This document shows positions 18,435-63,100 of a stretch of DNA of 64,000 bases, one piece after another. The number at the start of each line of letters is the position of its first letter. Position 1 is the first letter of the stretch. The notes under the pieces are model-generated. The model saw only the letters and a list, made by a program, of their open reading frames with translations. It did no database searches and was not told where the DNA came from. Both the position numbers and the translations under genes were made by a program. The stretch comes from Dudresnaya verticillata (lineage: Eukaryota): assembly GCA_977862235.1 (NCBI GenBank), contig OZ374557.1, positions 2,480,001-2,544,000 on the forward strand. The letters run 5' to 3'.

Positions 18435-18543
18435 AAGTATGCTGCGTTTCAACGAGTTACTCAGTCGTGCGACGTCCGACCTTCCGTCTCTAGACGTTCG
18501 TCGCTAATCGTCCACGACGTTCAAGCAACTCTACGACTGCATT

Positions 18544-31537: not shown

Positions 31538-31558
31538 CACGACTGGTACTGCTTGGCC
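31538..31558 (+). repeat. Putative 5' terminal inverted repeat CACGACTGGTACTGCTTGGCC
   Basis: Identical 21-mer at 47078-47098. Same-strand identity is expected for the 5' end of a plus copy and the 3' end of a minus copy. Confidence 0.65.
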
Positions 31559-33761
31559 GTCAGGGTAAATCTGGGGTAACCCAGTCGTGCGCGGCCATCA
31601 TTCCACTCCGGGTGCTGGTACCAGTACCACCCCTTCCCATGCCCACAATTCCACCCCGGGTCCTAGACCGGTGCGGCGCACCTCGCTCACCACGTCTACC
31701 GCGCGTGGCATACCAAATTGCGCCTGCACCTTAAGTTCACCATGCCCCTCCCGTACCACCCTCCCGATCGCTCCGCACCCGCAAGAACAGGCGTCTCTTG
31801 CACCCACCACACGCCCGGCACTGCGCCCCCGGCCGCGGAGTCTCGCGCTTCGCATACCGTCGCAGATGAGCTCAACAGCGAGGGAGACCTCTATCCACCG
31901 CTGTATGGTGCGTCCTCCGTGGATGTGGCCCGCGAATCACGAGAAGAAGAAGACGACCAGCCAGATGACGATAGCGATGGACTGCAGATATTTGTTTCCC
32001 ATTTTGTCCCGTGGCGCGACTCCATGGTCTAGGTCAGTGCAAACGCGCACGGATAGTCCTTACAAGAGCTGCAGAGTGACTTCTATGCTGCCGCTGACTC
32101 AACATCCACGTACACACTTAAAGTGTAGGATGCCGTGGCAATGCAGAACGCTACGTCTTGGCTGTTTAATCTGATGGACCGCACTGGTGCTGGCTACGGC
32201 ATACGGGGTGATGTTGTGCGTTTACGCCCCGTTTATCTGAGCAGTTGCGGATGTCGCGGTTGCAGGGCTTGTGTTTCATGAGCTTGTGCCATAGCTAGCA
32301 GAGTGGGCTGCAGAAGCAGAGGCGCCAGTAGACTTGCAGGAATCCAAACAGAAAGGCCCTCACTTTGAGAGGGCTACGTAACTGGAACTTGCGAGATGTT
32401 AACGAGGAAGCGCAGCCAAGCCGTTGCAGAGGGCTTACGTCGACTACGACCTTTTGCATGCATGGTCAGTGCCAATGGTGATGCTGCATCACCTGCATGT
32501 AGAGATGCGGGCTGTGACATCGACAGCTTTCCCGTTGCTACAATGGTGACTTCTCGGTCAGCGGCCTGACAGACAACGGGGCTCCCCGTATGACCTTTAT
32601 CCACCAGCTGTTGTGCTGCGGTATAAGATCTGACACACATTCTTTCTCGCTGTTCAAGACAACTACCACTAACAAGAAGATGCCTGGCTCAACTTACAAC
32701 AGCAGCTGGGTATCGACCCGGGTGAAAGTCTGGTCAATTCGCAAGATGCGTTGGATCTCAGAGCTGTGTTTCATACCTTGGGAAAGCTGTACCTCAGCCA
32801 GAGGTATCATATTTTATTTCCAGCTGTTGGCAGGAATCGTTAGTTTGTGAGGTCTGTGGCTGTCGCAGCTGTGTCCACGACAGAGATATCTTTCATGATG
32901 CGTGAATGCTTGTTCGCGATACGTCTACTGTCTGAGAGGGAGGTAGCCGTTGATGGGTTATCTGATCTTCGTAAGGAAGAGAACTCGGAAGCTGGCTCAA
33001 CATATGGAAATGGTCGGCAAGGGCGTAAAGCAGATATCGGGCAAGACCCAACCCTATCGCAACAAGTGTGTAAGCTTATGCGGCAATTCACAGCGAGGCA
33101 GAAGCCCCTTTTGTGCTGCTGTGTCCAAGTCAGAGAGAAGTATAATTGCAACATTTGGGTTCATCTTACGGGGTAAATCGTAGCAGCCCACAAACTTCAA
33201 CTTCAGTTGGGCTTTGGTGTCTTGCGTCAAATGATGCCCTCGTTACATCCACAGCAGACTCAAGTGTCTGAGCGTAGCGTCACTTCAGATACTGCAGCCG
33301 AAACCGACACGTTTGGTCGAGAAACATCAGAGATTCGTTTGCTTAACTACGTGCGTGACACACGGGCCCATTTCGGAACGATTCATCTCTACCACTTCTG
33401 GCAGTCTCGGCATATGCAAACATTGTCTGCCGTCAATCGTTGAGGAGGGTAAGAATGAAATGGGTATGAACCCGCTGCTCATCTTGAATAAAAGTCGTGG
33501 TGTTATGCGGGCAGGCCGCATTTTGTCTTCAATACAGTAATAGGCGCTGTTTTGTTGTTCTTCTTATTGATGGCCTTTAAGCACTTCCTACCCCTACGAG
33601 TCAGGGATTGCAATATTGTCACCATTTCCATCCCGTTGCGGATAGAATCACGACTGAAGACAAGCGGGAAGTGCGTTCATCAAAGAGTTCATCAGTCTCA
33701 GTAAATTTAATCAACCCCGTTTTCTACTCTATATATTCATTGCTATCACTTGACATTCTCA

Positions 33762-34133
33762 CTACACTATTAACTCCTCTTCATATTCGCTGCTTAAGGG
33801 GTTCGTGCAGCTCCACAGCTCCGCGCACACCGAGCGCACAGCTCTGGCGACAGCCGTCCTAACCGCCGTCGCTTCCCGCCTCAAGTGGCGGTAGCAGTGC
33901 ATGAGGAATTCGAATTCCTCCATGCACTCGCGGGCCTCCCTTAAACAGTCCTTCACGATGTCGCGCTGGGGGCGCACATCGATTCGAAGTAGTACCGCTT
34001 GTTCGTATGCTTGTCGGATTGCGTTGCGGGTCATGGTAGGTGTTCGCTGTACAGGGGGATGCAGGTCGACTTCCATCTCTGTGGACTGTGGACTGTCGCA
34101 GAAACAGCCGGTCACCTGGTGGAGTTGGAACAA
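33762..34133 (-). CDS. Small helical orphan ORF of the element (left copy)
   Basis: Open in both arms (mate 62622-62999 +) despite substitutions and an in-frame indel. Confidence 0.4.
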   Translation of the reverse strand: MFQLHQVTGCFCDSPQSTEMEVDLHPPVQRTPTMTRNAIRQAYEQAVLLRIDVRPQRDIVKDCLREARECMEEFEFLMHCYRHLRREATAVRTAVARAVRSVCAELWSCTNPLSSEYEEELIV

Positions 34134-34264
34134 GTATCTCAGCAGGGGTTGGGCGCGTCAAGTCAAGAGATAAATTTCGACAGTAATGGAAATCCTTTAA
34201 TGCTCATCTACATGGAAAAGTCCAAGTCCTGTTATTCGCTGTGACGTTCGCAAAAGGCAAAGTG

Positions 34265-35437
34265 TCATGGCATCAATGACTCGATCTGTGCACCTGGCAC
34301 GATACGTTGCATTTGTTGGACCTCGTCTCGAAGTATTTTGGAATGCTCGTATGTCACGCGGATGTCGTCACAGTTTATTTCTGGGGATGAAGGTACCTGT
34401 TGCTGGGTAAAAGTTGGACAATGCAGTGCCAGCGGTTTTCTTGCAGCCTTTAAGATCTGGGAAGAGGAAAAGAACCCCTGATCTCTCAAAGCAAGGAAAC
34501 CACAGACTACCCAATCGTTACTACTTTTTTCTTGGTGGTAGTAGTAGTACTGCTGTTAATACCTTCACGGAGCGCCTCATTCGTACATTCGAGTCAAATT
34601 GTTGACCTGAACTGTGAGATGCCTGACTTGCAGCAACCGCATCTCCCTTGCGGTGTTTTCATTCATCTCTACATATCTGGTCTTGAGTAATAGACGGCAG
34701 AACCGGTCCAAATGAAAAACCTCTTCTCCAGCCCCGTGGACTGTCTCAGATATATAAGATTCCAGTAACAGAGCATTTTCCCCTGCATAGCTTCCCTCCT
34801 TCACCAATCGGACTTTTCGGCGTAGTAGGCGATACAATTCGCTAAGACTCCTTGTCTCGTGTCAGTGGTTTCGCGCTTCAGCGTGCGACAGATTCTGGCA
34901 GAAACGTTGAAAAGCTTCACTGTCCCTGCCCTCGACCAGTTCGATGCCTGGTTCACTCAAATCTTCGTGAGCCCACTGCCTCGACGTTCGGGCCATCGTC
35001 ATGGACAAACTCCCGTCAAGTGTTTTGAACATGGCATCAAGGCGATCCTGAATTGACTCATCCTGGCATTTTCCATCGAATGGTGCCCCGTCGAGATCCA
35101 CGCTAACAATAGACATGGTTGGTGAAAGGTTTGGTTGCATAGACGAGGAGCGCTTTGTGCAACATGCAACAGTATCCTTGCTGTAGCAACTATATTTTAT
35201 ATGACCAGTAAATCCATGTTCACGATTTTTCTGCACAAGAATGTTACAGTTAGAACGAAGAGCAAACTGACCCCAAAAGTTCCGATGTTGTATTGGTGGG
35301 AAGTGCTCTGTGTCTGACGCACATGTTATTATAGTATTATGGATGTTGTTGGATGACGAACACGAGTTAGAAAATAGAATACTAAGCGCAGTTACGCCAC
35401 TGTACGGTTTTAACGGAGCAGGGTCTCTTAGGGACAT
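34265..35437 (-). pseudogene. Degenerate orphan coding region (mate 61317-62490 +)
   Basis: Chain of same-strand ORF fragments with different breaks in the two arms; no domain recognised. Confidence 0.35.
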
Positions 35438-35943
35438 ATAGGGGTCGAAACGCTTGACCGTATTAATGTTATGCCTGTACGGTTCCTATTGAACACCATG
35501 GCCATGGATGGCGCTGAGGCCCTCGCGAATTATTGTTATAGCAGGGAGTGTCTGCTGAATCATCAAGGGTCGTTCCGGGTTTATCTGCCCAGCTCAATAC
35601 CACGCGTAAATTATGAGGTCACCTGACTAATGACGTAATATACTAATCAAACTGTTACGAAGACGACGGAAATTGATCCACAATACGACGATGCTAGTAC
35701 AGAAACTGATCCCGTCACCCTGCTGTAATCCGTCAGAGGATCCTGAGACTGTCGTCCGAGTAGTAGACGTACTCGTCCCCATCAAACAAAATTGTCCTAC
35801 ACTGTTCCGTATGATGAACGCAGTCGTTCTATTACAGGAGCAGTGAAATAATGAATGTGATAGTAGTCACAAATGGTTAGGTTGTACACTCCCACTATTA
35901 GGACACAGGAAATAGAACTTTATCAAACTGTTGGCTAACGCCA

Positions 35944-36708
35944 TCACTCCAATGCTTCTTTCAGGTCTTGCATCCTTTTCTTCAAGAATGGCACATGAAC
36001 GCAGCACCCGGTGCTACGTCTAATCAGGTTCGCTAGGCGCCGCGGATTTTCCTCGGACTTATCTTCCTCACCATCCATACATCCGCAGTGAGGGCCCTTC
36101 CATAGGTCCAGCAGAGTCAGCCTTTCTATCCTCCGCCGATCATAAAATTTCTTTCCTTTGCAATTGAACTTATAGTTTCCGTCGAAGTACTGCTGAGAGA
36201 CGGAGAAGTCCGCACTTTCAATTCCGCCGACGCCGTACACCCTTTCATGAAACGCTTTGAAAATAGACGTGTCATAGAGACGTATTCCTAGCTCTTCCAA
36301 CCCGACGATACGCATCTGACGCTGCCTTGCCCGACTGACTATACATACAAACCTCTCCTCTCCCATACGCTCGACTGCCTCGTTTAAGCTCTCTCCTCCC
36401 GAGTTCTTAAAATCGTGTAGGTTCAGGGTCTCGCCTTGTAAGTTGTCGACTTCTTCTCTCCCTCCAGAAGTGTTGTGCGACGACATTTTTAACAGTAGTA
36501 CTCCACGGAATAGGTGCAACCTCTGGGCATTCGCTAGAATGAGTACGGGTGGCTGTGAAGCGCCTGGTTTCGAGATTCCAGCGCTCATGTGTGTGTTTGT
36601 ATGCGTGTGTTGTGCACAAAAGGGCGGAGAGTCCGACTTTAAGGGTACAGGCATTTCTGCACAAATGTACAGAGAGGCATCAAGATACGCAGTGTCACCA
36701 ATTGTCAC
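35944..36708 (-). CDS. Orphan ORF divergent from the methyltransferase (left copy; likely start near MSAGIS or MSSHN)
   Basis: Over 210 codons open in both arms (mate 59938-60810 +), with ordinary globular composition. Confidence 0.55.
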   Translation of the reverse strand: MTIGDTAYLDASLYICAEMPVPLKSDSPPFCAQHTHTNTHMSAGISKPGASQPPVLILANAQRLHLFRGVLLLKMSSHNTSGGREEVDNLQGETLNLHDFKNSGGESLNEAVERMGEERFVCIVSRARQRQMRIVGLEELGIRLYDTSIFKAFHERVYGVGGIESADFSVSQQYFDGNYKFNCKGKKFYDRRRIERLTLLDLWKGPHCGCMDGEEDKSEENPRRLANLIRRSTGCCVHVPFLKKRMQDLKEALE

Positions 36709-37239
36709 CCGAAACAGTTTCGGTTGGTGTCGAGTTGGCGCCTACGCGTGGTTTAATCTTGAGTGTGGATAGGAGCTGAATCCAAATTGATATACCTATA
36801 CAATCGTATAACCTGCGACTCGCAACCGTGCGCATGATTTGGTCGTGAATATCTCGCAGCCTGTTTTTCGGGTAGCATAGGACTACTGTACGGACTGCAG
36901 CCCGGATCTTTCTTGTACTGCAGACCCCTCATAGTAGTCACATCCTGGTCGGATTTCGCAGTCCTGAGACTGGAGAGTTTAGTACCGAGACTGCAGCATG
37001 TATCTGTCCACGATTGGTATGAGCGGAATCCATGCACAAGCGGATGAAGTCAATGACAGCGGCTGAGTCACATGGTTTTCATTTAATGCAAATTCTTTCT
37101 CTCATGCAGTGGGAAACGTTGTACATGCATGTATGGAGCAAGGGTGGAAAGCTGTGTCCGACAGAGGCAGTAGTCAGAATTCATTCAGACATCCCATCCA
37201 GAACGTCGGGTTACCGGTGCACACGATAGCCTGAGGAAT

Positions 37240-40150
37240 ATGCCATCGAAAAAGAAGAAGGGAGTGGCGGTGAGGTCTGTATCCATCACAGGACAGACCT
37301 CATCAGACATAAGAGCGCCTGTATAATCTGGGAATGATAGAGTTCTGTTCGGAGATGTCGTTTATGGAGCTACGCACAAGCGAGTCGACCCTCGTTCATG
37401 TGTCCCGTTGACCTACGTCCGCCCGATCTGCAGGTCGGGCGTCGAGCGATTGAAGCGCATTTTCCGGGGGCCTGACCGGTACAGTTCAGGGACATTGAAG
37501 TCTTCCGGGGAAGGAGCTCCGGACTCTATCGGTTACGTGGCTGGAAGTGATATTCCTGTCATTGTGCCATTGACAGGGGCATTGAGAAGCCGTGTGTCCG
37601 ATTATTTCGGGTCACAAACAAGGAAGGACTGTACGCGTCGTTCCGAGAAAGAAGTTCAGGACATTGTGAAATCGAGGGGGAAATGTTACGGAGTAGTTCA
37701 TGGCATGCATAGATTGGCAGCTATTCGTGAGCTGCTTGAAGAAAACTACAACCGGTGGAAAACCTTTGACTGGCCCGTGCCGGAGCTGAACCCGCGGACC
37801 GACCTGGTGGTCCTGAAGCAATTCGCTAGACATCAGAATCGTAAGCGCGAGGCAAACTGCTTCGTGGAAACTACCCTGTATAACACATTGAAGGGTCTGA
37901 AAGATGAGGCTGATCGCCTTCAAGCGGAGGGAAATGGTATCAATCCGACAGCAAAAGCGGTTGCGTCCGCTTACGATGGGGGTGTTCATATGCACGAGAA
38001 CACAGTGAGGCAGACAGCGCAAGTAGCTCTCCGACTAAGTCATCGTGTCATCGATGCGATAGGGGAGATAATGGGGGAAGAAATACCGCAGCTTGCATTG
38101 GATTCACGAAGTGGAAGAACTGCTAAATCAGTAGCAGACGATGCCCTGATGTCGGCAATGTCGTCAATGACGCCGGGTTTTCCGGACGTTTATTACTCTG
38201 AACTCACTGAAGGCTGCCACAGAGTTCATGCGCGCGGGCCAAATGAGTGGCCTGGTGCATGATGAGAGTGTGGAAGTCCAAGTCTCGACACTCTATCGCA
38301 TTCGAGAAATATGCAGGAGGAACGGGTTCAGGCCCGTTCTTTACGGGGTCACCGAATCAGAGTTCGGGAAGGCTAAAGATGCGCTAGCAGAGGTTCGCAA
38401 ATTCGAAGGCCTTCGTGAATCTGGGGACTGTCCGGGTCCCATGGACACAATGCGGACAAATGTTCTGCGATCCCAAACGTTTGATGGCGATATCATGCTC
38501 AACAGGGGCAACGACACATTGATTTTGAAATGCATTCGGGATATGTGCAAGGACTGTTGTCCGGAAGAAGCACCCCTGAAGATTCACAAGTACCATTCTG
38601 TTAGAGAAAGGAACAGAAAGGAGTGCGATGAAGAGAAAAATTTGGACCGGGAGTGTGTGAATGAGATTACGACTGGAGTGCAAGATTAAGGGGGGGTCAA
38701 TTCCGATCAGGTAACAACTGCTGGAAACAAGGACCATCCCTCTGACGGACAGATCGAACACGATGACGTTCCCTCTCCTTCTGTGAACGTAGATTCGCTA
38801 CCTTGCAGTCGAGACCTCGGTTCTACCGGAGACCATCACAATCATGATGCAGGAGATGTGCAGGGATCGGCTATAAAATCTACTGTGACGGTGAGCACGG
38901 AAAAGTCGGAGAGGCTGGCTGTACGTGGGACAAGAACGGACCTGACGACCATTTGCAAGCTGATATCTTGAAGGCGTATAGAATAACCTGCCATCAGATG
39001 CGGTGGCAGGTATACAATAAGAATATTCGCGAGGGTGTTGGTGACCTATGCGACATAGTTTTTACCGACACACCGTATGGAACGCCTGCATCACAGTCTG
39101 ATGCAGGGAAACAGTACGTCAACTATATGAGTGATTCTGAAATATCCGAGCTTGCAGGAATGTGCAGGGAATCCGTTGTACCGGGAGGGTGGGTGTTCAT
39201 GTTCGTGTCCTACCAGACATTCGAACCTATAAGGCAGGCTCTTCTGAAGGCCGGTTTCACTTGCCCAACGTACGCCTTTTCGATTGCAAAGGATACACAC
39301 ATGGTGCAGGAGAGGCGAGGAAATGACTGTCCCCAAAATGGCCACGAAATTGCCGTAATGGGAAGAGCCCCAGGACAACACCCAGCGGATTTAAAGTGGA
39401 TCTTCGAAGCCCATATCAATTAGCGAAGGCTTCGGAAAAGAGAAAGTTTGCGTGCATATCTCAAATTCCCGTTTCTAAGAAGAAACGCCTTAAACCGGGT
39501 ACAAAATCACCGGTGCTTACTGAGGAGAAGAATGTTCAGCTGTTGGTGGAATTGTTGACGACCTTCTGCCCTGATGGGGGGCCATTTTGGACATGTATGC
39601 TGGAATGATGACAGCTGCAATTGCAGCCGTGCAGACTGGTAGGAAATGCACCTGTATAGAGCAAAGCCTACAGACATACAGGCTTGCAGTTGCACGCCTG
39701 AAAAGGATAGCAAGTGATCATCGCAAGTTGTCGGAAGGAATGGAAGGAACACCACTGTGCCATGGTACAGCGGAAGAGGCCCTGGGAGAGGACCAGGGAG
39801 CGGATGTGGAAAACCCGCAACAGAAACGGCTCAGGAATGAGGCGAAGAAAACTTCGGATTGTACTACTGGCGGCGATGCAGTTGTTCTATACGTTGGGAA
39901 GAACGCTGTTGGGAAGACAAAAGTCCAATTCGGGGCAAGTTCTGATGAAAACGTTCGCAAGCAGATTCATCTGAAACCCCTGTCAGAATACGAAAAGCCA
40001 GGACAGGAACTCATTGCGGTGTACGCCTTCGAATGTGATTCATCCTTTGCCACCTCAGCATATCCGTATAACTTTCATGTCCCGAACGGCCATCCTTCCA
40101 CGATTCTAAGTGAGCTAGACGGATTTTTTGCATGGGTATCCATCCGATGA
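37240..40150 (+). pseudogene. ParB-like domain fused to beta-class N6A/N4C DNA methyltransferase (left copy, disrupted)
   Basis: MPSKKKKG start; YGVVHGMHRLAAI; DIVFTDTPYG (motif IV); EKNVQLLVELL..FCPDGG/LDMYAGMMTAAIAAVQTGRKCTCIE (motif I region). Confidence 0.8.
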
Positions 40151-40630: not shown

Positions 40631-40835
40631 GCAATCGCGTGAAAACCTATCCAATATTATGGAGAATGACCAACAGCTTTTCGGAAAGCCGCCCGTAAAT
40701 TTCTATTAAACAGCACATACACTGTACGAGATCTGAAAAACTATGATAGGTTTTCCGAAACGCGAGTGCTCATGTGCTGTTTAATAGCTTTTTGATTCTC
40801 ACTGGTCGAAAAGCTGTAATAGGTTTTGCGATTGC
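40631..40835. repeat. Imperfect ~205-bp palindrome (mate 55943-56147)
   Basis: Nested inverted pairs: GCAATCGC..AAAACCTAT/ATAGGTTTTGCGATTGC, CAGCTTTTCG/CGAAAAGCTG, CTATTAAACAGCACAT/ATGTGCTGTTTAATAG. Confidence 0.85.
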
Positions 40836-41469
40836 CTCGGGCCAAACACCTTTTTGATAGAAACTACGTTTGCTCGACCCCAGGACCTATTCCATATTAT
40901 GGAGAATGCAAGATAGCTTTTCAGGTCACGCGGCATAGCTCTACAGGATCTTTTCCACGAGATTTATCGCTGAATCCCTTCTCGGAATTTTCTTTCGGAA
41001 CAGCTGGGTCCCTCCACCCGTCCGGTTGTTGGCCAGCGCCCTCCCAAACGCAATCGCAACCACACCGCCGCGTTTCGCTTCAACCGCCTCCCGCCCGCCC
41101 CCCGCAACGGGCGCCAGGTCGCGCCCCACCGCACCCCACCGACCCGCACAACTACTGTGCTTCCCGTCGCACTGCCGCACCACGCCCCGACGCGGTACCC
41201 CACGCAAACCCCACGCACCTCACGGGAAAGCGCGGCCCTCACACGCTGGGGTGCCGTGGCGAAGCCTCAGAGCGCATCGCGCTGCCCCACGCGGCGGCGC
41301 GCTGCACCTGGCCTCGTCCACCATCGAGCTGCCTTTTGACGCGTCCAATTTCATCTCATTCGCAACAAGACTATTGTGATATAACATAGGAGGCAGTTCG
41401 AGGTATCGTTACAGCTACTAGAAAGCCTCATGGCCATTCTCTGGCGATTCTTTTGCGCTTGGATGCGCT

Positions 41470-41612
41470 TAGCTGGATGCACTTAGCTCAAATAAAGGGA
41501 AAGCGGAGCAACCCTGTTGCCGTGTGGAACATTGGATGCTCACCAATAACTGCGCGCGAGTTTTCCCCCGACATGAACAGCGAGGGAAGCCGTCTCATGG
41601 CTGTTACTCGAC
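41470..41612 (+). pseudogene. Captured WDR20/DMWD/CreC-like WD40 gene fragment (upstream piece)
   Basis: KRSNPVAVWNIGCSPITAREFSPD..RLMAVTRHG resembles the NPVxxW..I..FSPD..LA...RDG segment of WDR20-family proteins. Confidence 0.55.
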
Positions 41613-41614
41613 AT

Positions 41615-42200
41615 GGCGGTCGGCAAGCTTGGCAAAGAGAGCTGATAAAATGTCAAGAAGGAGATGGTTGTGGACAAGCGACTGGATGAAGCCGCCGCCG
41701 ACAAGATTGAAAACTTTGTTATGCTGAACGGCGACCCGTTGGAAATCTTAACGAAGTTGCGCGAACAAGCGGAATTGGCAGAGGCCTATGGCGAAGCTCT
41801 TGATGGAATGGAGACGCTTTTCAACTTGGTGGCAAGCATGCGCGAGGGGTAACCGCAGTGGCTTTCGTTTGATCTCCCGCTCGACCGTGGGCTGGAATAC
41901 TACAGTGGCGTCATTTTTGAGGCGGTCTTAGTCGACAAGAAAACGAACTTGGGCTTCATTGGCACTGGGGGTCGTTATAACAATTTGGTGGGCATGTTTC
42001 CTGAGTCGCGTTATACCGTGTGTTGGGTGCTCTCTCACATCAATGAGAACTGGAACATGGGAAAGCAGGTAACGCAGGCCATTACCCAAGGCATTACCCT
42101 CATGGTGGTTATCGGAGAGGACGAGATTGCGCAAGGTGTAGCAAAACGTAAAGTGCTGGCGACAAAGGCCGAGCAGACCATCCCAAGGGGAATAAGGCCC
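41615..42200 (+). pseudogene. Captured cytosolic histidyl-tRNA synthetase fragment (internally deleted)
   Basis: [57 protein letters not shown]. Confidence 0.85.
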
Positions 42201-42339
42201 AGTGTTTGCGCCCTTTCTTTCGAGAGGAGTGATCATCATTCATGGTCCTCTTCGATGCTCTTTGAATGGATGGCATCCCGAATTGCTGTCCAATGCTAGC
42301 TTTGTCTTCTTCGTGGGCCCAGTTCGGTTCTTACTCACC

Positions 42340-43100
42340 ATGTCCGATGTTTGTGGCCAAGCACAATCAGCAATGTTGAACCTACAAGCCAAACGAAGCC
42401 CGGAGGAAGTCCGTTGGTGTCAGATATATGTAAGTTGCAGTATTGGCTTGAAGTTGTCGAATTTCTGGTGGACTCACCTTTGTCATCTCAACCTAGGAGA
42501 ACCAGTTCAATCACTGTCCAACCCATGCGCTGAAATATTTTGTTTGCTCAGGTCGCGATTGGGTAGGCTCTGCAGGTGTTCAAAGTGCCCACGCTAGGAC
42601 AGCCGTATGAAAATATCAAAACAGTAATGGCAGCCAACCGAACAGGTAACCTTAGAGGTGCTTTGCGCCGTTTAGACTCATCTTGAGGAAGCTCTGCATT
42701 TTGGCAAGGGCTCATGCCGTGGGCCTGCATAGAGGCAGTAACGAAGAGAAGAGTGCCTCTCTTTGCGCAGAATGAGATGAAGAATCTCAAACAATAGGTG
42801 GGGATGGGACGTTTGCGTCTAGTGCCTTCGGCGGAATGGGTAGTGGAGTGTGCCAAGGCTACTACAAAATGGGGTTCTGTACGTTCATGAAGACAGTTCA
42901 AGTAACAAGAACAAAATGCGTTGGCGGTGGTCAGAAGAGCTGCATAGCTGTGGCTAGTGACATCTTGCGAAGGGAAGGAATCCTAGGGATTTACAAAGGC
43001 GTCAATGCTGTAGCGTTGTGGCAAGCAACGAATTGGGGATCTCACTTTCGGTTCTGCAGAGTTGTTGAGTCCATCATCCGCAGGAAGGATGGCGCCTTTT
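42340..43100 (+). pseudogene. Captured YHM2-like mitochondrial carrier 5' fragment with retained intron 42430-42551
   Basis: TLGQPYENIKTVMAANR, QGLMPWACIEAVTK, MGFCTFMKTVQVTR, GIYKGVNAVALWQATNWGSHF closely follow fungal Yhm2 motifs. GTAAGT...GCTCAG phase-0 intron. Confidence 0.85.
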
Positions 43101-43413
43101 GATAGTGTTGTAAGGTATCATACTTTTCAATCACTGGCAGACTCACCTCTGGGCTCGTGCAACACAATTCGAAAGAGACTTTTCTCAGCCTCATTGCACT
43201 CTTGCAACTCCCGTGGCGTGTCGGGAAAGCTCCGAGTACGGGAATCTGCAGTTAGATGAACGGAGCACCGGCTTTGGCGAGCAGAGCGAGGCGGACTCGG
43301 TGTGGTAGAGGGGCACGGCGGAAAGGCGCGCACAACGGCCCGGGCGGTGATGTGCGCGCAGAGAGATTTACTAATGTCGGTTATCGTGCCATAAAGGTTT
43401 CGGAGCAGGTCTT

Positions 43414-43955
43414 TTAGGATTCGGAGCGGGAGGATCGTGGGCTCGCTTGGGCCTCAACGGATGTGATCACAGTTTCCAGGGCAAACATTGCCTGCGATAA
43501 TGCCAATGTGACACTGCGATGAACTCGGCGAAAGACACTGCCAACCATGCGCAGAGCCGCTCGCTTCAGACGGGCAACCAGCTGACTTAGCTCATCCTGA
43601 GCGCTCCTAAGTTGCTGGAATTCTTCTTCAAGCTCAACGAGTTGCGCTTCGACATCTTCGAGACTTATGTCATCCGTCTGCATCAGGCTTGTTCCGTGAC
43701 TTCAGACTCCTCCTTTCTGCGGGCAAGGTGGAGCTGCAAAGCCGCGATATGTACCCTTGATTCTGTAAGTTTCTCCTGGATGAAGACAAGCAGACGGTTG
43801 ATTTGACACACAACTGGCCACCCTAGTCGTTGAAGCTCACGCGACAAGTACGATACCGTCTCCCGAATGGTCCTGATCTCCCCCTGTAGTGTAGCTTTTC
43901 TCTCCTGAGCGGAATGCAGCCTCCCTTCTCTTGTCTCTTGATACATGTTGTGCAT
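43414..43955 (-). CDS. Coiled-coil-like ORF pair overlapping at TGATG (mate 52367-52908 +)
   Basis: Two ~90-aa E/L/Q/R-rich ORFs with a 1-nt stop/start overlap. Confidence 0.4.
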
Positions 43956-44719
43956 AAGGTAGAGTCTGGAACGTTTGTCTCACGGCGAACTTCAAATTTG
44001 CAGACTGGTACTTGATGCACAGGTTGGTGCATGTTCGCAAACTGGCGAAAAGCCAGCTGTAGCCCACGGCAGCTCATTGGATAGACTTGTCCTTGTTCTG
44101 CAAGAAAAATCACGGGGTATCGAGACGTAAACATCAACGCAGCCGGCAGCCGGGGTCGTACTTCTCAGCCCCTCTCGATTCTATTTCTTATCCTTGACGC
44201 CCATCAATACTACCCGCTTGTGGTCGCATGGCGGAATAGAGCAGTCTGCAGGGCGTACCCTTGCAATACCGAGTACTGCTTCTTGATTGACGGGGACTCG
44301 AGATTCGCGACTTGTCCGTTCTGATTGGTAATATGGCACGCTCGTCTCTCGAATCAGACTGTTTTGTTCGCACTGGCGCTATAGTGTATGGCGGGAAGGA
44401 GTGGTGCATACAGAGCGAGAGGGAAGCCCTTCTAATACCAGTCGTTTTAACTGCGATCCGTAGCAACTCTGGACATGCGCAAGCCTGTCACGCAGAACGC
44501 CCCACCGCCACTGGAACAGTATTATACCGGTGTCGTTTCAGAAGCGCCCTCGGCCCTCCCGAATATTTCAGCTCTTCAGAACAAGTAGCGCACAACTATC
44601 GCGCCATAGCGGGAACATCGATTTTGTTGCTTCACTTCGCCCGCCCTGAGTGCAAGGAGCATCTTGCACTAGTGAATTGCAAAAGGCTCAGACTCCCCTA
44701 CCGAAAGGGGTAGTAGAAC

Positions 44720-47072: not shown

Positions 47073-47077
47073 TGGTA

Positions 47078-47098
47078 CACGACTGGTACTGCTTGGCC
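47078..47098 (-). repeat. Putative 3' terminal inverted repeat of the right copy
   Basis: Identical to 31538-31558; lies 5 nt after the point where the left transposase breaks off. Confidence 0.65.
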
Positions 47099-47414
47099 CA
47101 GATTTACCCTGGCTCACCAGTATCACCCCTCCGTCTCGTGGCCATCATTCCACTCCGGGTCCAGTGCGGCGCCTGTGCCGCACCACCTCTACCGCCATCT
47201 CGCTTGCCATATCAGACTTCAAGCTCACCACACCCCACTGTCTACACCCGCCCATGCCGCCCTCCCCATCAAGCCGCGCACCTCGCGCACCTACTCTACC
47301 GCACCACGCAGGCATGTCAAAGTGCGCGTGAAGTCGTAGACTTCACATCTACGACATGCCCCGCCGCGGCGGTAAGTGTTGTGCGACTGGGGTAAAATTG
47401 AGCAGGTCCTGCTC

Positions 47415-47918
47415 AAGTGCTGAAACTGCATCAGGTACTGCAGAGAGACACCAACCGCTCTACCTGCGCATGGCTGCCGGTGCGTCTTGCGTCAATTGCT
47501 TTTACATCGCTTCGCAAACACCCCCCGCTATTGCCATTGCAAGCCAAACAACGCAATCCACTCGCACGAAAACAATTTCACGAGTTATCATTACCCCCCT
47601 GTTGCTAATGCAAGGCAAATAAGAATCACTCGCACAACAACAATTTCGCGTGTTATCATTGCCCTCGTATTGCCATTGCAAGGCAAATAACAATCACTTG
47701 CGCAACAACAATTTCGCGTGTTTTCATTTCCGTCGACGCCAACTGCTGAAGTGCTGAAACTTCATCACGTGCTGGACCACGACATCAACCGCTCTAACTT
47801 CAAATGGCTTCCGGTGTGCCTTGCCTCAAACGCTTTTGCAACGCTGACCAAACAAACCCCGCTATTTACATTGCAAGGCAAGGAACGCACAGCACTCGCA
47901 CAGTACCAATTTCGCGTC
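47415..47918. repeat. Subterminal repeat array (three ~69-bp units inside an older ~330-bp-period duplication)
   Basis: TGCAAGGCAAA..CACTCGCAC..AACAATTTCGCGTGTTATCATT units at about 47530-47730; AGTGCTGAAACT..CAACCGCTCTA at 47416 and 47750. Confidence 0.8.
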
Positions 47919-48119
47919 CTAGCTCTACTGCTCAAGTATAGAAAGTGGTAGTCCTGGACGAACAGGAAAACAAACCAGTTTCATAGCAGCTCTCAAACAC
48001 ATTACCCTAATCACCTTCACTCTATACTTCCCATTCTGACTCAGTAGACTTACCTCTATTCCTTGCTCTACAGATGGCTGCGGGAGCTACTGTTTGTGAA
48101 GGCACTCGCGCAACTTCTT

Positions 48120-51100: not shown

Positions 51101-51602
51101 TTTGTGGGTTAGCGTCAGCCACCGCACGTTTTTCCACTCTGGAGACAGTCGCACCTGAGCTCTTTCTGCGCTCTGTATTGTAGATGGTTAAGATATCCTC
51201 AATCTGGAATAGGTCCCAGGCGTGTTTTCCAGTCTGCATTCGACTCAGTGTCTCCGGACAAGGCGTACTGCCTGGTTTGTACTGGAAAAGGTTTTCGTAG
51301 GAATTGCAGTTGTGGAGGCATCGCACGAGGTGAACTACAACCCATACTTCTCCATCACGTTGTTGAGGCCCAAGGTTGCGCCCGTGCAGGTATGTGCCGA
51401 ATCGACCACTGGGATCAACGGCACCCTCCCTAAAATCATGAGGTCGTAGCAGGGTTGCTGTAGCAACGTGTTCCCCGTTGAGAGTGAGCATGACTCGTGC
51501 GCCGGGCTTTGTTCCGGGAAGCAGCTCATCGCCGAAGTCGTCGTCGTTCTGAACTGGAACGTTTCCTGCTTTCGAAACCTGCCCAGATGAGGCTTGGGCC
51601 AT
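48120..51602 (-). pseudogene. Sola-like DDD transposase, right copy, full span but with stop and frameshifts
   Basis: IIDGADQ ... LQLDNCTRE(fs)NKY ... FLPIGHTYSDIDQ, preceded by Cys clusters. C-terminal beta-rich domain PFNVAKVMQV...LRWYE. Confidence 0.8.
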
Positions 51603-54139: not shown

Positions 54140-55155
54140 TTCCCCTTGGGATGGTCTGCTCGGCCTTTGTCGCCAGCACTTTAAGTTTTGCTACAACTTG
54201 TGCAATCTCGTCCTCTCCGATAATCACCATGAGGTTAATGCCTTGAGTAATGGCCTGCTTCATCTGCTTTCCCATTGTCCATTCTCATAGAAGCAAAACT
54301 CAATAGAAACCCGGCGCGCCAGCTTTCTGCGGAAAGCCGCCGTCTGGGCTTCATAGCTCCTTTTCCGACCGTCACAACAAGCACATCCATCGTCGTCGCG
54401 CACCTTTCCCTTCCCGTCAACCGACTCCGCTGCCGCCTGTTTCTGCGCAGCCTGGACCATCATATTCACTATTCTTTCAATGCCTAGAGAGCACCCAACA
54501 CACGGTATACTCGACTTACGAAAAATGCCCACCAAATTATCATAGCGACTCCCAGTGCCAATGGAGCCCAAGCTCGTTTTCTTGTCGACCAAGACCGCCT
54601 CGAAAATGACGCGATTGTATTAGTCGAGCCCACGAGCGAGCGGGAGATCAAACGAAAGCCACTGCGGTTGCCCCTCGCGCATGAATGCCACCAAGTTGAA
54701 AAGCTTCTCCATTACATCAATAGCTTCGCCACAGACCTCTGCCAATTCCTCTTGTTCGTGCAAATTCGTTAAGATTTCCAACGGGTCGCCGTTCAGCATA
54801 GCAAACGTTTCGATCTTGTCGGCGGCGGCTTCATCCAGTCCCTCATCCACAACCATCTCCTTGAAATTCTCCCAGCTCTCTTTGTCAAGCTTGTCGACCG
54901 CAGAGAAGATGGTCCGAAGCTTTTCGTCCGGTAGGCCACACACGCGGAAGATGGCATCCATGATGACCATGTTGCTGACCTTGATGTTGTAGCTCCTGAT
55001 GCTCTAGAGAAGCTTTTCGTGGAACTTGCCCTGACTAGCAAGTGTGTCGAACATCTGTATCATCACAACGAGCACGTCTGCATCCGGGACCATGGAGGGG
55101 TATTTGTCAGCGATGTCAAAGTCGCACTGATAGAAGTCGCTATTTCCACGCAGCC
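54140..55155 (-). pseudogene. Captured histidyl-tRNA synthetase fragment (motif 2 to anticodon-binding domain)
   Basis: [58 protein letters not shown]. Confidence 0.9.
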
Positions 55156-55159
55156 GAGA

Positions 55160-55586
55160 AAATTGCTCGCCTTGCGCTCCACTGTTTGCTGCCCAGACGC
55201 CGAGCCATTCCCAACAGGACCATTCGTACTGCTGCCAGAGGAGGTCGCAGCGCTGGGCGCGTTGTTCACATCACGTACGTAGCTATGCAACCCTACCACA
55301 CCAGTGCCAAGTCCTGATTGCGGAGATATGTGATACAACACATCCAACGCAAAATCTCACAGCAACCGCTTCGCATCTTGCCCTGCGCTGCCGATGTGAT
55401 ACCGGTCGGGTACACTTAGAGATGCGTCCCACGCCACTGCACTGAACCAAGACGTATGCTTCTCTAACCACGCAACCAGCCGCTCCTCTGAAAGGCACCA
55501 GATCGAAACCAGACCATCTTCACCGCTCGTGGCGACATGCTTTCCATCTGGACTGCACGCAACGCATAAAAGGCCCCAATGTAGCT
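55160..55586 (-). pseudogene. Captured WDR20/DMWD/CreC-like WD40 fragment (downstream piece)
   Basis: GLLCVACSPDGKHVATSGEDGLVSIW...HTSWFSAVAWD...YHIGSAGQDAKRLL*D. Confidence 0.82.
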
Positions 55587-56597
55587 TCGGGGGCGTGGTG
55601 CGGCAGTGCGACGGGAAGCACAGTAGTTGTGCGGGTCGGTGGGGTGCGGTGGAGCGCGACCTGGCGCCAGTCGCGGGGGGCGGGCGGGAGGGGGTTGTAG
55701 AGAAACGCGGCGGTTCGGTTGCGATTGCGTTTGGGAGGGTGCTGGCCAGCAACCGGACGGGTGGAGCGACCCAGGTGTTCCGAAAGAAAAGTCCGAGAAG
55801 GGAATCAGCGATAAATCTCGTGGAAAAAATCCTGGAGAGTTATGCCGCACGACCTGAAAAGCTATCTTGCATTCTCCATAATATGGAATAGGTCCTGGGG
55901 TCGAGCAATCGTAGTTTCTATCAAAAAGGTGTTTGGCCCGAGGCAATCGCAAAACCTATAACAGCTTTTCGACCAGTGAGATTCAAAAAGCTATTAAACA
56001 GCACATGAGCACTCATGTTTCGGAAAACCTATCATAGGTTTTCAGATCTCGTACAGTGTATGTGCTGTTTAATAGAAATTTACGGGCGGCTTTCCGAAAA
56101 GCTGTTGGTCATTCTCCATAATATTGGATAGGTTTTCACGCGATTGCAGTAATTTCAGAACTGCGGGCACTCGTCCCGCGATGAGACGCAAGTTTATTGC
56201 TCGAGTGCACCTACCTGCAAATCGAAGCTCTCGATATTCTCACAGTGCTGTGACCCGACCCGCCTCGCTACTACTACTCTACCGGGCCGTGGATGCATCA
56301 TTCCTCTAGATGCTTTTTGGCAGATCTTCCATGCCGCTCGACCTTCATCCCATGCTCTGCAACAGCTACAATTCGATGGAACTCTGCAGATCCGACATTG
56401 TGAAAGAGAAGTTGCTGCAGAAATGGGACCGAGTGATGATGCAACTTTTGCGCTGTGGACTTCTACTGGGATAGCGCTGTCGGTGGCAGTACATGCTCTC
56501 CAGCGAGGAGTAGCATGTGATTATGGCTTACGATATTGCGCTATGGCGTAGGAAACTAGTGAAGAGAACAATTATTATGCTCAACTCTGCTTTACCC

Positions 56598-59532
56598 TCA
56601 TTTCTGGTTCCACCGCTCCTGGGCTTTCATCGGATGGATATCCCATGCAAAAAATCCGTCTAGCTCACTTAGAACCGTGGAAGGGCGGCCGTTCGGGACA
56701 TGAAAGTTATACGGATATGCTGAGGTGGCAAAGTATGAATCACATTCGAAGGCGTACACCGCAATGAGTTCCTGTCCTGGCTTCTCGTATTCCGACAGGG
56801 GTTTCAGATTAATCTGCTTGCGAACGTTTTCATCAGAACTTGCCCCGAATTGGACTTTTGCCTTCCCAACAGCGTTCTTCCCAACGTACAGAACAACGGC
56901 ATCGCCGCCAGTAATACAATCCGAATTTTTCTTCACCTCATTTCTGAGCAGTTTCTGTTGCGGGTTTTCCACATCCGCTCCCTGGTCTTCTCCCAGGGCC
57001 TCTTCCGCTGTACCATGGCACAGTGGTGTTCCTTCCATTCCTTCCGACAACTTGCGATGATCACTTGCTATCCTTTTCAGGCGTGCAACTGCAAGCCTGT
57101 ATGTCTGTAGGCTCTGCTCTATACAGGTGCATTTCCTACCAGTCTGCACGGCTGCAATTGCAGCTGTCATCGTTCCAGCATACATGTCCAAAATGGCCCC
57201 CCCTCAGGGCAGAAAGTTGTCAACAATTCTACCAACAGCTGAACATTCTTCTCCCCAGTAAGCACCGGGGATTTTGTACCCGGTTTAAGGAGCTTCTTCT
57301 TAGAAACGGGAATTTGAGATATGCACGCAAACTTTCTCTTTTCCGAAGCCTTCAATAATTGATATGGGCTTCGAAGCTCCACTTTAAATCCGTTGGGGTG
57401 TTGTCCTGGGGCTCTTCCCATGACGGCAATTTCGTGGTCATTTTGGGACAGTCACTTTCTCGCCTCTCCTGCACCGTGTGTGTATCCTTTGCAATCGAAA
57501 AGGCGTACGTTGGGCAAGTGAAACGGGCCTTCAGAAGAACCTACCTTATAGGTTCGAATGTCTGGTAGGACACGAACATGAACACCCACCCTCCCGGTAT
57601 AACGGATTCCCTGCACATTCCTGCAAGCTCGGATATTTCAGAATCACTCATATAGTTGTCGTACTGTTTCCCTGCACCAGACTGTGATGCAGGCGTTCCA
57701 TACGGTGTGTCGGTAAGAACTATGTCGTATAGGTCACCAACACCCTCGCGAATATTCTTATTGTATACCGGCCACCGCATCTGATGGCAGTTTATTCTAT
57801 ACGCCTTCAAGATATCAGCTTGCAAATGGTCGTCAGGTCCGTTCTTGTCCCCACGTACAGCCAGCCTCTCCGACTTTTCCGTGCTCACCGTCACAGCAGA
57901 TTTTATAGCCGATCCCTGCACATCTCCTGCATCATGATTGTGATGGTCTCCGGTAGAACCGAGGTCTCGACTGTAAGGTAACGAATCTACGTTCACAGAA
58001 GGAGAGGGAACGTCATCGTATTCGATCTGTCCGTCAGAGGGATGGTCCTTGTTTCCAGCAGTTGTTACCTGATCGGAATTGACCCCCCTGAATCTTGCAC
58101 TCCAGTCGTAATCTCATTCACACACTCCCGGTCCAAATTTTTCTCTTCATCGCACTCCTTTCTGTTCCTTTCTCTAACAGAATGGTACTTGTGAATCTTC
58201 AGGGGTGCTTCTTCCGGACAACAGTCCTTGTACATATCCCGAATGCATTGCAAACTCAATGTGTCGTTGCCCCTGTTAAGCATGATATCGCCATCAAACT
58301 TTTGGGATCGCGGAAGCTTTGTCCGCATCGTGTCGATGGGACCCGGTCAGTCCTCAGATTCACGAAGGCCTTCGAATTTGCGAACCTCTGCTAGCGCATC
58401 TTTAGCCTTCCCGAACTCTGATTTGGTGACCCCGTAAAGAAAGGGCCTGAACCCGTTCCTCCTGCATACTTCTCGAATGCGATAGAGTGTCGAGACCTGG
58501 ACTTCCACACCCTCATCATGTACCACGCCACTCATTTTGGCCCCCGCGCATGAACTCTGTGGCATCCTTCAGTGCGTGCAGAGTAATAAACTTCCGGAAA
58601 ACCCGGCAGTCCATCGACGACATTAGGGCATCGTCTGCTATTGATTTAGCAGTTCTTCCATTTCGTGAAGCCAATGCAAGCTGCGGTATTTCTTCCCCCA
58701 TTATCTCCCCTATCGCATCGATGACACGATGACTTTGTCGGAGAGCTACTTGCGCTGTCTGCCTCACTGTGTTCTCGGGCATATGAACACCCCCATCGTA
58801 GGCGGACGCAACCGCTTTTGCTGTCGGCTTGATACCATTTCCCTCCGCTTGAAGGCAATCAGCCTCATCTTTCAGACCCTTCAATGTGCTATACAGGGTA
58901 GTTTCCACGAAGCAGTTTGCCTCGTGCTTACGATTCTGATGTCTAGCGAATTGCTTCAGGACCACCAGGTCGGCCCGCGGGTTCAGCTCCAGCACAGGCC
59001 AGTCAAAGGTTTTCCACTGGTTGTAGTTTTCTTCAAGCAGCTCACTAATAGCTGCCAATCTATGCATGCCATCAACTACTCCGTACCATTTCCCCCTCGA
59101 TTTCACAATGTCCTGAACTTCTTTCTCGGAACGACGCGTGTAGTCCTTCCTTGTTTGTGACCTGAAATAATCGGACACACGGCTTCTCAATGCCCCTGTC
59201 AATGGCACAACGACAGGCGTATCACTACCAGCCACGTAACCGATAGAGTCCGGAGCTCCTTCCACGGGAGACTTCAATGTCCCTGAACTGTACCAGTCGA
59301 TCCCCCGGAAAATGCGCTTCAATCGCTCGACGCCCGATCTGCAGATCGGGCGGACGTAGGTCAACGGGACACATGAACGAGGGTCGACGCGCTTGTGCGT
59401 AGCTCCATTAACGACATCTCCGAACAGAACTCTATCATTCCCAGATGATACAGGCGCTTTTACGTCTGCTGAGGTCTGTCCTGTGTTGGATACAGACCTC
59501 ACCGCCACTCCCTTCTTCTTTTTCGGTGGCAT
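56598..59532 (-). pseudogene. ParB-like domain fused to beta-class N6A/N4C DNA methyltransferase (right copy, disrupted)
   Basis: MPPKKKKG; WYGVVDGMHRLAAI; DIVLTDTPYG; LDMYAGTMTAAIAAVQTGRKCTCIE. Confidence 0.82.
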
Positions 59533-59937
59533 ATTTCTCAGGCTATCGTGTGCACCGGTAACCCGACGTTCTGGATGGGATGTCTGAATGAATTCTGACT
59601 ACTGCCTCTGTCGGACACAGCTTTCCGCCCTTGCTCCATACATGCATGTACAACGTTTCCCACTGCATGAGAGAAAGAATGTGCATTAAATTAAAACTAT
59701 GTGACTCAGCCGCTGTCATTGACCTCATCTGCTTGTGCATGGATTCCGCTCATACCAATCGTGGACAGATACATGCTGCAGTCTCGGTACTAAACTCTCC
59801 AGTCTCAGGACTGCGAAATCCGACCAGGATGTAACTACTATGAGGGGTCTGCAGTACAAGAGAGATCCGGGCTGCAGTCCGTACAAGTAGTCCTATGCTA
59901 CCCAAAAAACGGGCTGCGAGATATTCACGACCAAGCC

Positions 59938-60810
59938 ATGCGCATGGTTGCGAGTTGCAGGTCATACGATTGTATAGGTATAGTAATTTGTATTGAGCTC
60001 CTATTCACACTCAAGGTTAGACCACGCGTTGGCGCCAACTCGGCACCAACCGAAACTGTCTCGGGTGACTATGGTGACACTGCGTATCTTGATGCCTCTC
60101 TGTACATTTGTGCAGAAATGCCTGCACCCGTAAAGTCGGACTCTCCACCCTTTTGTCCACAAATCATGAGCGCTGGAATCTCGAAACCAGGCGTTTCACA
60201 GCCACCCGTACTCATTCTAGCGAATGCCCAGAGGTTGCACCTATTCCGTGGAGTACTACTGTTAAAAATGTCGTCGCACAATGCTTCTGGAGGGAGAGAA
60301 GAAGTCGACAACTTACAAGGCGAGACCCTGAACCTACACGATTTTAAGAACTCGGGAGGAGAGAGCTTAAAGGATGCAGTCGAGCGTATGGGAGAGGAGA
60401 GGCTTGTGGGTATAGTCAGTCGGGCAAGACAGCGTCAGATGCGTATCGTCGGGTTGGAAGAGCTAGGAATACGTCTCTATGACATGTCTTTTTTCAAAGC
60501 GTTTCATGAAAGGGTGTACGGCGTCAGCGGAATTGAAAGTGCAGACCTCTCTGTCTCTCAGCAGTACTTCGACGGAAACTATAAGTTCAATTACAGAGGA
60601 AAGAAATTTTATGAGCGGCGGAGGATAGAAAGGCTGACTCTGCTGGACCTATGGAAGGGCCCTCACTGCGGATGTATGGATGGTGAGGGAGATAAGTCCG
60701 AGGAAAATCCGCGGCGCCTAGCGAACCTGATTAGACGTAGCACCGGGTGCTGCGTTCATGTGCCATTCTTGAAGAAAAGGATACAAGACCTGAAAGAAGC
60801 ATCGGAGTGA
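59938..60810 (+). CDS. Orphan ORF (right copy of 35944-36708)
   Basis: Open frame conserved in both arms; true start probably internal. Confidence 0.55.
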   Translation: MRMVASCRSYDCIGIVICIELLFTLKVRPRVGANSAPTETVSGDYGDTAYLDASLYICAEMPAPVKSDSPPFCPQIMSAGISKPGVSQPPVLILANAQRLHLFRGVLLLKMSSHNASGGREEVDNLQGETLNLHDFKNSGGESLKDAVERMGEERLVGIVSRARQRQMRIVGLEELGIRLYDMSFFKAFHERVYGVSGIESADLSVSQQYFDGNYKFNYRGKKFYERRRIERLTLLDLWKGPHCGCMDGEGDKSEENPRRLANLIRRSTGCCVHVPFLKKRIQDLKEASE

Positions 60811-62621
60811 TGGCGTTAGCCAACAGTTTGATAAAGTTCTATTTCCTGTGTCCTAATAGTGGGAGTATACAACCTAACCATTTGTGACTACTATCACATT
60901 CATTATTTCACTGCTCCTGTAATATAACGACTGCGTTCATCATACGGAACAGTATAGGACAATTTTGTTTCATGGGGACGAGTACGTCTACTACTTGGAC
61001 GACAGTCTCTGGATCCTCTGACGGATTAAAGCAGGGTGACGGGATCAGTTTCTGTACTAGCATCGTCGTACTGTGGATCAATTTCCGTCGTCTTCGTAAC
61101 AGTCTGATTAGTATATTACGTCATTAGTCAGGTGACATCATAATGTACGCATGGTATTGAGCTGTGCAGATAAACCCGGAACGACCCCTGATGATTCAGC
61201 AGACACTCCCTGCTATAAAAGTAATTCGCGAGGGCCTCAGCGCCATCGGTGGCCATGGTGTTCAGTAGGAACCGTACAGGCATAACGTTAATACGGTCAA
61301 GCGTTTCGACCCCTATTTGTCCCTAAGAGACCCCGCTCCGTTAAAACCGTACAGTGGCGTAACTGCGCATAGTATTCCATTTTCTAACCCGTGTCCGTCA
61401 TCCAACAACATCCGTAATACTATAATAACGCGTGCGTCAGACACAGAGCACTTCCCGACAATACAACATCGCAACTGTTGCGGTCAGTTTGCTCTTCGTT
61501 CTAACTGTAACATTCTTGAGCAGAAAAATCGTGGACATGGATTTACTGGTCATATAAAACATAGTTGCTGCAGCAAGGATACTGCTGCATGTTGCACAAA
61601 GCGCTCCTCGTCTATGCAACCAAACATTTCACCAACCATGTCTATTGTTAGCGTGGATCGCGACGGGGCACCATTCGATGGAAAATGCCAGGACGAGTCA
61701 ATTGAGGATCGCCTTGATGCCATGTTCAAAACACTTGACGGGAGTTTGTCCATGAAGATGGCCCGAAAGTCGAGGCAGTGAGCTCACGAAGCTTTGAGTG
61801 AGTCAGGCATCGAACTGGCCGAGGGCAGGGACAGTGAAGCTTTTCAACGTTTCTGCCAGAATCTGTCGCAAGCTGAAGCGCGAAACCACAGACACGAGAC
61901 AAGGCGTCTTAGCGAATTATATCGCCTACTACGCCGAAAAGTCCGAATGGTGAAGGAGGGAAGCTATGCAGGGGAAATGCTCTGTTACTGGAATCTTATA
62001 TATTTGAGACAGTCCACGGGGCTGGAGAAGAGGTTTTTCATTTGGACCGGTTCTGCCGTCTATTACTCAAGACCAGATATGTAGAGATGAATGAAAACAC
62101 CGCAAGGGAGATGCGGTTGCTGCAAGTCAGGCATCTCACAGTTCAGGTCAACAATTTGACTCTAATGTACGAATGAGGCGCTCCGTGAAGGTATTAGCAG
62201 CAGTAGTACTACTACCGCAAAGAAGAAAAGGTAATAACGATTGGGTAGTCTGTGGTTTCCTTGCTTTGAGAGCTCAGGGGTTCTTTTCCTCTTCCCATAC
62301 ATTAAAGACTGCAAGAAAACCGCTGGCACTGCATTGTCCAACTTTTACCCAGCAACAGGTACCTTCATCCCCAGAAGTAAACTGTGACGACATCCGCGTG
62401 ACATACGAGCATTCCAAAATACTTCGAGAGGAGGTCCAACAAATGCAACGTATGGTGCCAGGTGCACAGATCGAGGAATTGGTGCCATGACATATTGCCT
62501 TTTGTGAACGTCACAGCGAATAACAGGACTTGGACTTTTCCATGTAGATGAGCAGAAAAGCATTTCCATTACTGTCGACATTTATCTCTTGAATTGACGC
62601 GCCCAACCCCTGCTGAGATAC

Positions 62622-62999
62622 TTGTTCCAACTCCACCCGGTGATCGGCTTTGTCTGCGACAGTCCACAGTCTATAGAATTAAAGATGGAAGTCGACCTGC
62701 ATCCCCCATCACAGCCAACACCTACCATGACCCGCAACGCAATCCGACAAGCATACGAACAAGTGGTACTACTTCGCATCGATGTGCGCGCCCAGCGCGA
62801 CATCGTGAAGGACTGTTTAAGGGAGGCTCGCGAGTGCATGGAGGAATTCAAATTCCTCATGCACTGCTACCGCCACTTGAGGCGGGAAGCGACGGCGGTT
62901 AGGACAGCTGTCGCCAGAGCTGTGCGCTCGGTATGCGCGGAGCTGTGGAGCTGCACAAACCCCTTAAGCAGCGAAGATGAAGAGGAGTTAATAGTGTAG
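62622..62999 (+). CDS. Small helical orphan ORF (right copy)
   Basis: Mate of 33762-34133. Confidence 0.4.
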   Translation: MFQLHPVIGFVCDSPQSIELKMEVDLHPPSQPTPTMTRNAIRQAYEQVVLLRIDVRAQRDIVKDCLREARECMEEFKFLMHCYRHLRREATAVRTAVARAVRSVCAELWSCTNPLSSEDEEELIV

Positions 63000-63100
63000 T
63001 GAGAATGTCAAGTGATAGCAATGAATAGATAGAGTAGAAAAAGGGGTTGAGTAAATTTACTGAGGCTGATGAACTCTTTTATGAACGCACTTCCCGCTTG

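Follow-up and report, generated by a model that had tools for sequence, protein, structure and literature searches.

Probable decayed, inverted Sola1 transposons carrying a ParB-methyltransferase gene in Dudresnaya verticillata

The 64,000-nucleotide stretch of Dudresnaya verticillata DNA analyzed here (assembly GCA_977862235.1, contig OZ374557.1, positions 2,480,001 to 2,544,000; hereafter the window, numbered from its first letter) contains two inverted copies of a large unit in which the gene for a fused ParB-DNA methyltransferase accompanies a transposase gene. We consider it probable that these copies are decayed members of a family of Sola1 cut-and-paste elements, in which the ParB-methylase would bind a palindrome array within the element and mark or shield it, and in which a domain common to the methylase and the transposase would direct both proteins. 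The window copies themselves are no longer capable of these proposed functions.

Comparison of the window with itself resolves three inverted blocks: 33661-41188 against 63100-55590 (322 mismatches in 7,497 columns, 4.3%), 41616-42035 against 54901-54486 (43 in 416, 10%) and 42040-47072 against 54291-49250 (95 in 5,029, 1.9%). Each arm carries on one strand the ParB-methylase gene, scraps of host genes and then a DUF7869 transposase gene. A preliminary description had recognized the two inverted copies, the shared orientation of methylase and transposase, and a joined length of 17-18 kb, and all of this is borne out: the two genes lie at 37240-40150 (+) and 44720-47072 (+) in the left arm and at 59532-56598 (-) and 51602-48120 (-) in the right, and joining the left 5' end to the right 3' end gives a composite element of 15,535 + 2,172 bp, or 17.7 kb. 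Exact-sequence lookup of 10 window open reading frames (ORFs) in a protein collection found none of them present. The features of the two arms are as follows.

31538..31751 (+): left imperfect terminal inverted repeat (TIR), first 21 bp identical to the right end
31752..33660: sequence of the left copy only, no family match
33661..37239 (-): left orphan-ORF region, divergent from the methylase gene; ORF A 35947-36741, ORF B 34865-35485, ORF C 33765-34157
37240..40150 (+): left broken gene for a ParB-helical-amino-methyltransferase protein; basic N-terminal motif, HGMHR 37699, DTPY 39067, DMYAG 39590
39830..40135 (+): shared domain at the left methylase C-terminus
40635..40930: left palindrome array; seven AAAASCTRT half-sites, full 19-bp sites at 40736 and 40809, nested inverted repeats
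41189..44300: left host-gene scraps; HisRS about 41600-42200, mitochondrial carrier 42776-43099, prefoldin-like coiled coil 43417-43701
44720..47072 (+): left transposase, broken; Cys clusters 46185 and 46707, stop 46818, first catalytic Asp motif DGADQ 46890, ends at 47072
44810-45127 (+): shared domain at the left transposase N-terminus
47078..47365 (-): right imperfect TIR, 3' end of the inverted right copy
47409..47929: subterminal direct repeats, a 174-bp pair and 68-bp units
48120..51602 (-): right transposase, full extent, broken; DGADQ 49432, DNCTRE 49186, GHTYSDID 49082
54292..55589 (-): right-copy cargo; HisRS scrap and a WD40 scrap missing from the left copy
55850..56140: right palindrome array, perfect 19-bp sites at 55951 and 56024
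56598..59532 (-): right broken ParB-methyltransferase gene; DGMHR 59073, DTPY 57711, DMYAG 57188
56942-56616 (-): shared domain at the right methylase C-terminus
59533..63100 (+): right copy of the orphan-ORF region; homology to the left arm ends at 63100

The transposase had been called Sola-type, and the assignment holds: it is a DUF7869 protein with Sola1 motifs. Pieces of the right copy match DUF7869 (E 6e-11 and 8e-19), and three intact relatives of 958-1132 aa share 42% identity over the part searched. Compared by eye, the relatives' DNCTRENKN and FLPIGHTHADID motifs fit the published Sola1 profile consensus (nodes 82-124, accessible part of the PMC5751038 supplement), and the DDD transposase signature DNC..[QE]NKN plus FL..GH[ST] can be recognized by eye in the window and in the relatives alike. 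We rejected Sola2, for which the accessible text of PMC3627910 gives DF.ENY, SDG..QYKN and F.TSHGK..CDG, against DGADQ, DNCTRENKN and GHTHADID here. A motif search of the PMC3985635 supplement yielded no usable match, the accessible text of 10.1101/2021.09.26.461848 was of no help either, and no literature on DUF7869 was found in our searches, whose coverage, here and below, leaves out subscription journals. Both window transposases are broken; the right copy has a frameshift and two stops at about 49137-49165, and a frame break within 45300-45550 is present in both arms. Beside this common break the linker contains three tandem 18-bp units (45546-45600). A conserved beta-rich domain forms the end of the transposase (48120-48480 (-) in the window; P0023-P0025 among the relatives); in P0023 it has a weak, below-cut-off BAH match (E 0.14), and it may be a chromatin reader.

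The accessory gene encodes a ParB-like N-terminus and an N4C/N6A methyltransferase domain, and fold comparison indicates a complete beta-class amino-methyltransferase fold with the ParB-fold part fused to it. The permuted motif order, with DPPY ahead of the S-adenosylmethionine (SAM)-binding motif, and the fold are those of the beta-class enzymes CcrM, M.BceJIV, M1.HpyAVI and bdelloid N4CMT, but identity to these is just 13-24%, and the window family adds a helical region of ~230 aa and the C-terminal shared domain. For comparison with phage ParB-methylase fusions, the best viral fold match is a phage protein labelled ParB/sulfiredoxin. Single-sequence structure prediction of P0002 reached a predicted local distance difference test (pLDDT) score of 34. 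Intact relatives are numerous, a family of 298 clusters at E<=1e-30, with ParB and methylase joined in one protein in 59 of 163. The size of this family, the folds and the Sola1 motifs support the earlier claim of a large Sola-type element with its own ParB-methylase.

Whether this protein acts mainly as an enzyme is less clear-cut. The window copies lack the signature of an active methyltransferase, an intact [DNS]PP[YF] motif in an open frame: they have DTPY, stops, frameshifts (in the left copy a stop at 37324 and several frame breaks) and a dN/dS (nonsynonymous to synonymous substitution ratio) of 0.88 between arms. The nearest intact relatives have that signature, and from DPPY and the nearest structures the target base is likely N6-methyladenine (6mA), with N4-methylcytosine (4mC) as the alternative. 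The same element could instead carry an accessory protein that is mainly a DNA-binding anti-silencing or scaffolding factor; for most family members the methylase fold would then be a passenger or a pseudo-enzyme. DPPY is missing in 65 of 94 aligned members (EPPP, EPPS, ALPS, DPFQ and others stand in its place), and both window copies, 4% apart, have DTPY, so that their parent already had it. These counts weigh against the catalytic part of our interpretation: because so many relatives lack DPPY, binding may outweigh catalysis. We nevertheless judge this alternative rather unlikely, since the methyltransferase fold is complete and DPPY is kept together with the SAM-binding motif D.Y.GT in 10 of the first 11 full-length matches, the nearest intact relatives.

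The methylase and the transposase are tied together by a domain: the C-terminal ~105 residues of the methylase show homology to the domain with which the transposase begins. A hidden Markov model (HMM) of nine methylase C-termini detects P0025 (E 4e-27), P0024 (4e-23) and the window transposase N-terminus (1.3e-11; E-values scaled to 1e6 sequences), and among 1,359 window ORFs it matches nothing beyond that N-terminus and the methylase itself. The reciprocal HMM, built from the transposase side, recovers methylases, tblastn with P0012 as lone query recovers the domain (8e-9) and hhalign of the two domains gives 99.1% over 106 columns; a pairwise BLASTP that sets the window domain against only P0002 gives no significant match (E 0.53). 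The domain is present in at least 20 of 59 full-length methylases and in two of the three intact transposases. It has no Pfam match and no usable Atlas feature match, and its structural neighbors, found without folding the domain by itself, are of mixed folds at template-modelling (TM) scores <=0.54; joint prediction of the two domains, run without alignments, scored 0.01. In a tree of 33 rows, after removal of 16 near-duplicates, the three transposase copies cluster with weak support (74/72), and the sequences point to a single ancient sharing event with the domain retained on both proteins. The domain may resemble accessory domains of CACTA elements. A bolder proposal, which we hold with considerable doubt, is that the window represents a distinct Sola1 lineage whose transposase and ParB-methylase evolved jointly as one machine of two parts, the beta-rich ~105-aa domain serving as a common address module (for a DNA or chromatin target, or for protein pairing) and a bacterial-type mark on the element's own parS-like array being coupled to transposition.

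The array lies 3' of the methylase gene in both arms and is built from sites with the consensus AAAASCTRT-n-AYAGSTTTT. Half-sites number seven in 350 bp, against none in the first 30.7 kb of the window, and full sites number four across both arms, against none in 100 shuffles, for a motif derived from the same sequence. The array folds with z = -5.9 and is a candidate ParB binding site.

Identical 21-mers occur at 31538 and 47078, with no other site in the window within 4 mismatches. They open a patchy homology between 31538-31751 and 47078-47365 (score 129 against a best of 77 in 100 shuffles). The two stretches are oriented as they should be if one is the left copy's 5' end and the other the 3' end of the right, inverted copy. 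Imperfect TIRs as expected of Sola1 are present (21 bp identical plus 200-290 bp patchy), yet they pair the ends of two different copies. The unit had been described as bounded by the shared 21-mer, which does mark those two ends, but neither copy has a boundary at each side: the left one breaks off inside its transposase at 47072, and right-arm homology stops at 63100 against unrelated sequence. Because neither copy shows both ends, a target site duplication (TSD) cannot be read in the window. The element termini begin CACGA, and the left terminal repeat contains a second 21-bp block at 31593 and an internal hairpin (31532-31546/31581-31595). At the inner junction, five extra bases (47073-47077) are a copy of terminal-repeat bases 7-11, which suggests filler added in repair more than a clean insertion. 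Several smaller repeats were seen nearby. At 33649-33656, 12 bp short of the beginning of arm homology, the start of the terminal repeat recurs as an 8-bp copy, perhaps a cryptic end or an older one; the same 8-mer occurs by chance in a Ty3 element. A 15-bp block is inverted between the terminal repeats (31561-31575 and 47097-47111), and just outside the left one are a hairpin plus a short array of tandem palindromes (31160-31210 and 31345-31390), with an 18-bp perfect palindrome at 31359.

The window copies likely belong to a multi-copy transposon family. Methylase and transposase searches of metagenome contigs and viral contigs found no second locus, and a search of genome contigs gave one weak, methylase-only match (29% over 58 residues). 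The intact methylase P0013 and the intact transposase P0025 are Logan singletons, each on a contig of 8,748 bp; this is the sole tie among 43 x 12 lengths, where 0.04 would be expected, and the two likely lie on one contig. Divergence between the arms ranges from 0 to 10% by segment, their cargo differs, and the transposase at 46401-47071 has a dN/dS of 0.29 (p 0.003) between arms, a pattern that would fit an origin of the copies from members active independently of each other. To give the inverted arrangement, one copy likely landed in the other copy's transposase, or became joined to it by repair, with gene conversion between the arms afterwards. A tract of 3,314 bp (43020-46333 and its inverted partner at about 53310-49990) has zero differences between flanks that are 2-10% divergent, which suggests recent gene conversion or an assembly or polishing effect. 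That contrast could also reflect an assembly artefact, comprising either the whole inverted pair or the identical stretch at its middle; we regard this as very unlikely: most of the arms are 4% apart with independent indels, stops and cargo, and an artefact would touch the identical tract only.

It is improbable, if less so, that the locus is a plain inverted segmental duplication in which a dead Sola1 transposase lies next to an unrelated methylase from another element. The missing second ends and TSD and the identical tract fit such a history, and accessory genes of red-algal elements do move between families of transposable elements (accessible text of bioRxiv 10.1101/2025.02.11.637652). 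Against it stand the domain common to both proteins, in distant relatives too, the equal-size contig pair and the TIR-like homology found at the unit's opposite sides. Divergence that varies along the arms, cargo that differs between them and purifying selection acting on a portion of the transposase also speak against it. The same gene pairing has, moreover, already been published (PMC12477816).

That report, as far as its accessible text goes, also overturns the earlier suggestion of a possibly undescribed family. Published in 2025, it describes Sola1-1_Ec32 from the brown alga Ectocarpus, a 21.5-kb element with the same cargo, a 282-bp imperfect TIR, a 4-bp TSD and termini AACCG-CGGTT; its accessory protein of 1,104 aa, with ParB and N4C/N6A methylase parts, is encoded on the strand opposite to the transposase. 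Self-binding or self-modification is proposed there, and similar proteins are cited for transposons from green and red algae. Compared by description only, the two share giant Sola1 size, a long imperfect TIR and a ParB-methylase protein of ~1,000-1,100 aa, whereas the window methylase is co-oriented with the transposase and upstream of it (the opposite-strand layout being known from one example), its termini start CACGA, and it carries host scraps and the ~105-aa domain.

In the red alga Bostrychia, Plavaka (EnSpm) elements with PAG2 and PAG3, of 17-19 kb, carry methylase and ParB genes (accessible text of bioRxiv 10.1101/2025.02.11.637652). They resemble the window in their PF01555 methylase, in a ParB gene beside tandem inverted repeats and in accessory genes that hop between transposable-element families, but differ in having an EnSpm transposase and separate methylase-SET and ParB-2OG oxygenase genes. 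A Plavaka/EnSpm element with the PAG cassette was rejected for the window, where the transposase is DUF7869 and 59 of the 163 relatives join ParB and methylase in one protein; none of 60 relatives scanned had a SET or 2OG match, and 'Sola' is absent from the accessible main text of that preprint. Sola2 elements of 12-13 kb carry Fanzor1, and viral Mariner elements carry methylases (accessible text of PMC3627910); Sola2 is alike as a Sola-superfamily element with passenger genes and unlike in its motifs and Fanzor cargo. The window architecture is not among the eukaryotic N6A-methylase clades described in the accessible part of PMC4738411, and that of PMC8885841 mentions neither algae nor Sola. 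In the literature covered, ParB-methylase cargo appeared only in the Ectocarpus and Bostrychia papers, whose accessible text does not mention the shared domain, at which no literature search was aimed. The design is thus known; new are the shared domain, the co-oriented layout, the host-gene cargo and the candidate binding array.

In the mechanism we favor, the transposase would cut at the CACGA-starting termini, and the ParB part would use the AAAASCTRT-n-AYAGSTTTT sites for loading in the way that ParB uses parS. The accessory protein would then methylate (likely at N6-adenine) or shield its own element, and the mark or the bound protein would keep copies transcribed or tune the activity of the ends, while the ~105-aa domain would send both proteins to the same target, be it DNA, chromatin or a partner protein. 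A self-written epigenetic mark by transposons has been proposed and is untested outside plant VANDAL elements (accessible text of bioRxiv 10.1101/2025.02.11.637652), and the locus supplies handles on it: intact DPPY relatives, a candidate 19-bp binding site and a domain common to enzyme and transposase. Expansions of N6_N4_Mtase genes in red seaweeds, of which Asparagopsis has 66 (PMC12115072), may by extension be transposon-borne.

The orphan ORFs and host scraps of the preliminary description fared differently. HisRS, WD40 and Mito_carr scraps exceed Pfam cut-offs, with the prefoldin-like piece below, but the orphan ORFs have no Pfam, NCBIfam or PHROG match, and two of the three lie near a dN/dS of 1 (A, B and C: 0.96, 1.15 and 0.23 between arms, C from 9 changes only). 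An orphan ORF of ~180 aa without family match is open in both arms, at 35947-36483 (-) and 60050-60810 (+), divergent from the methylase, and could be a third accessory gene.

Beyond the right arm, 63101-64000 (59% GC) bears no relation to the left arm and includes a 213-aa ORF that matches no family; it could be an insertion, other cargo or host flank. The left part of the window (1-30732) holds chromodomain Ty3 long terminal repeat (LTR) elements and an intron-free EMC1 stretch (10688-12451), which mark the window as eukaryotic and are not part of the Sola1 element; by the style of its genes the host would be a seaweed, likely a red alga. A 594-aa ORF at 27054-28835 (-) has no family match. 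The Ty3 retrotransposon is present as two inverted copies, 97% identical, with three LTR copies (1-9004, 17495-26522, 29821-30732).
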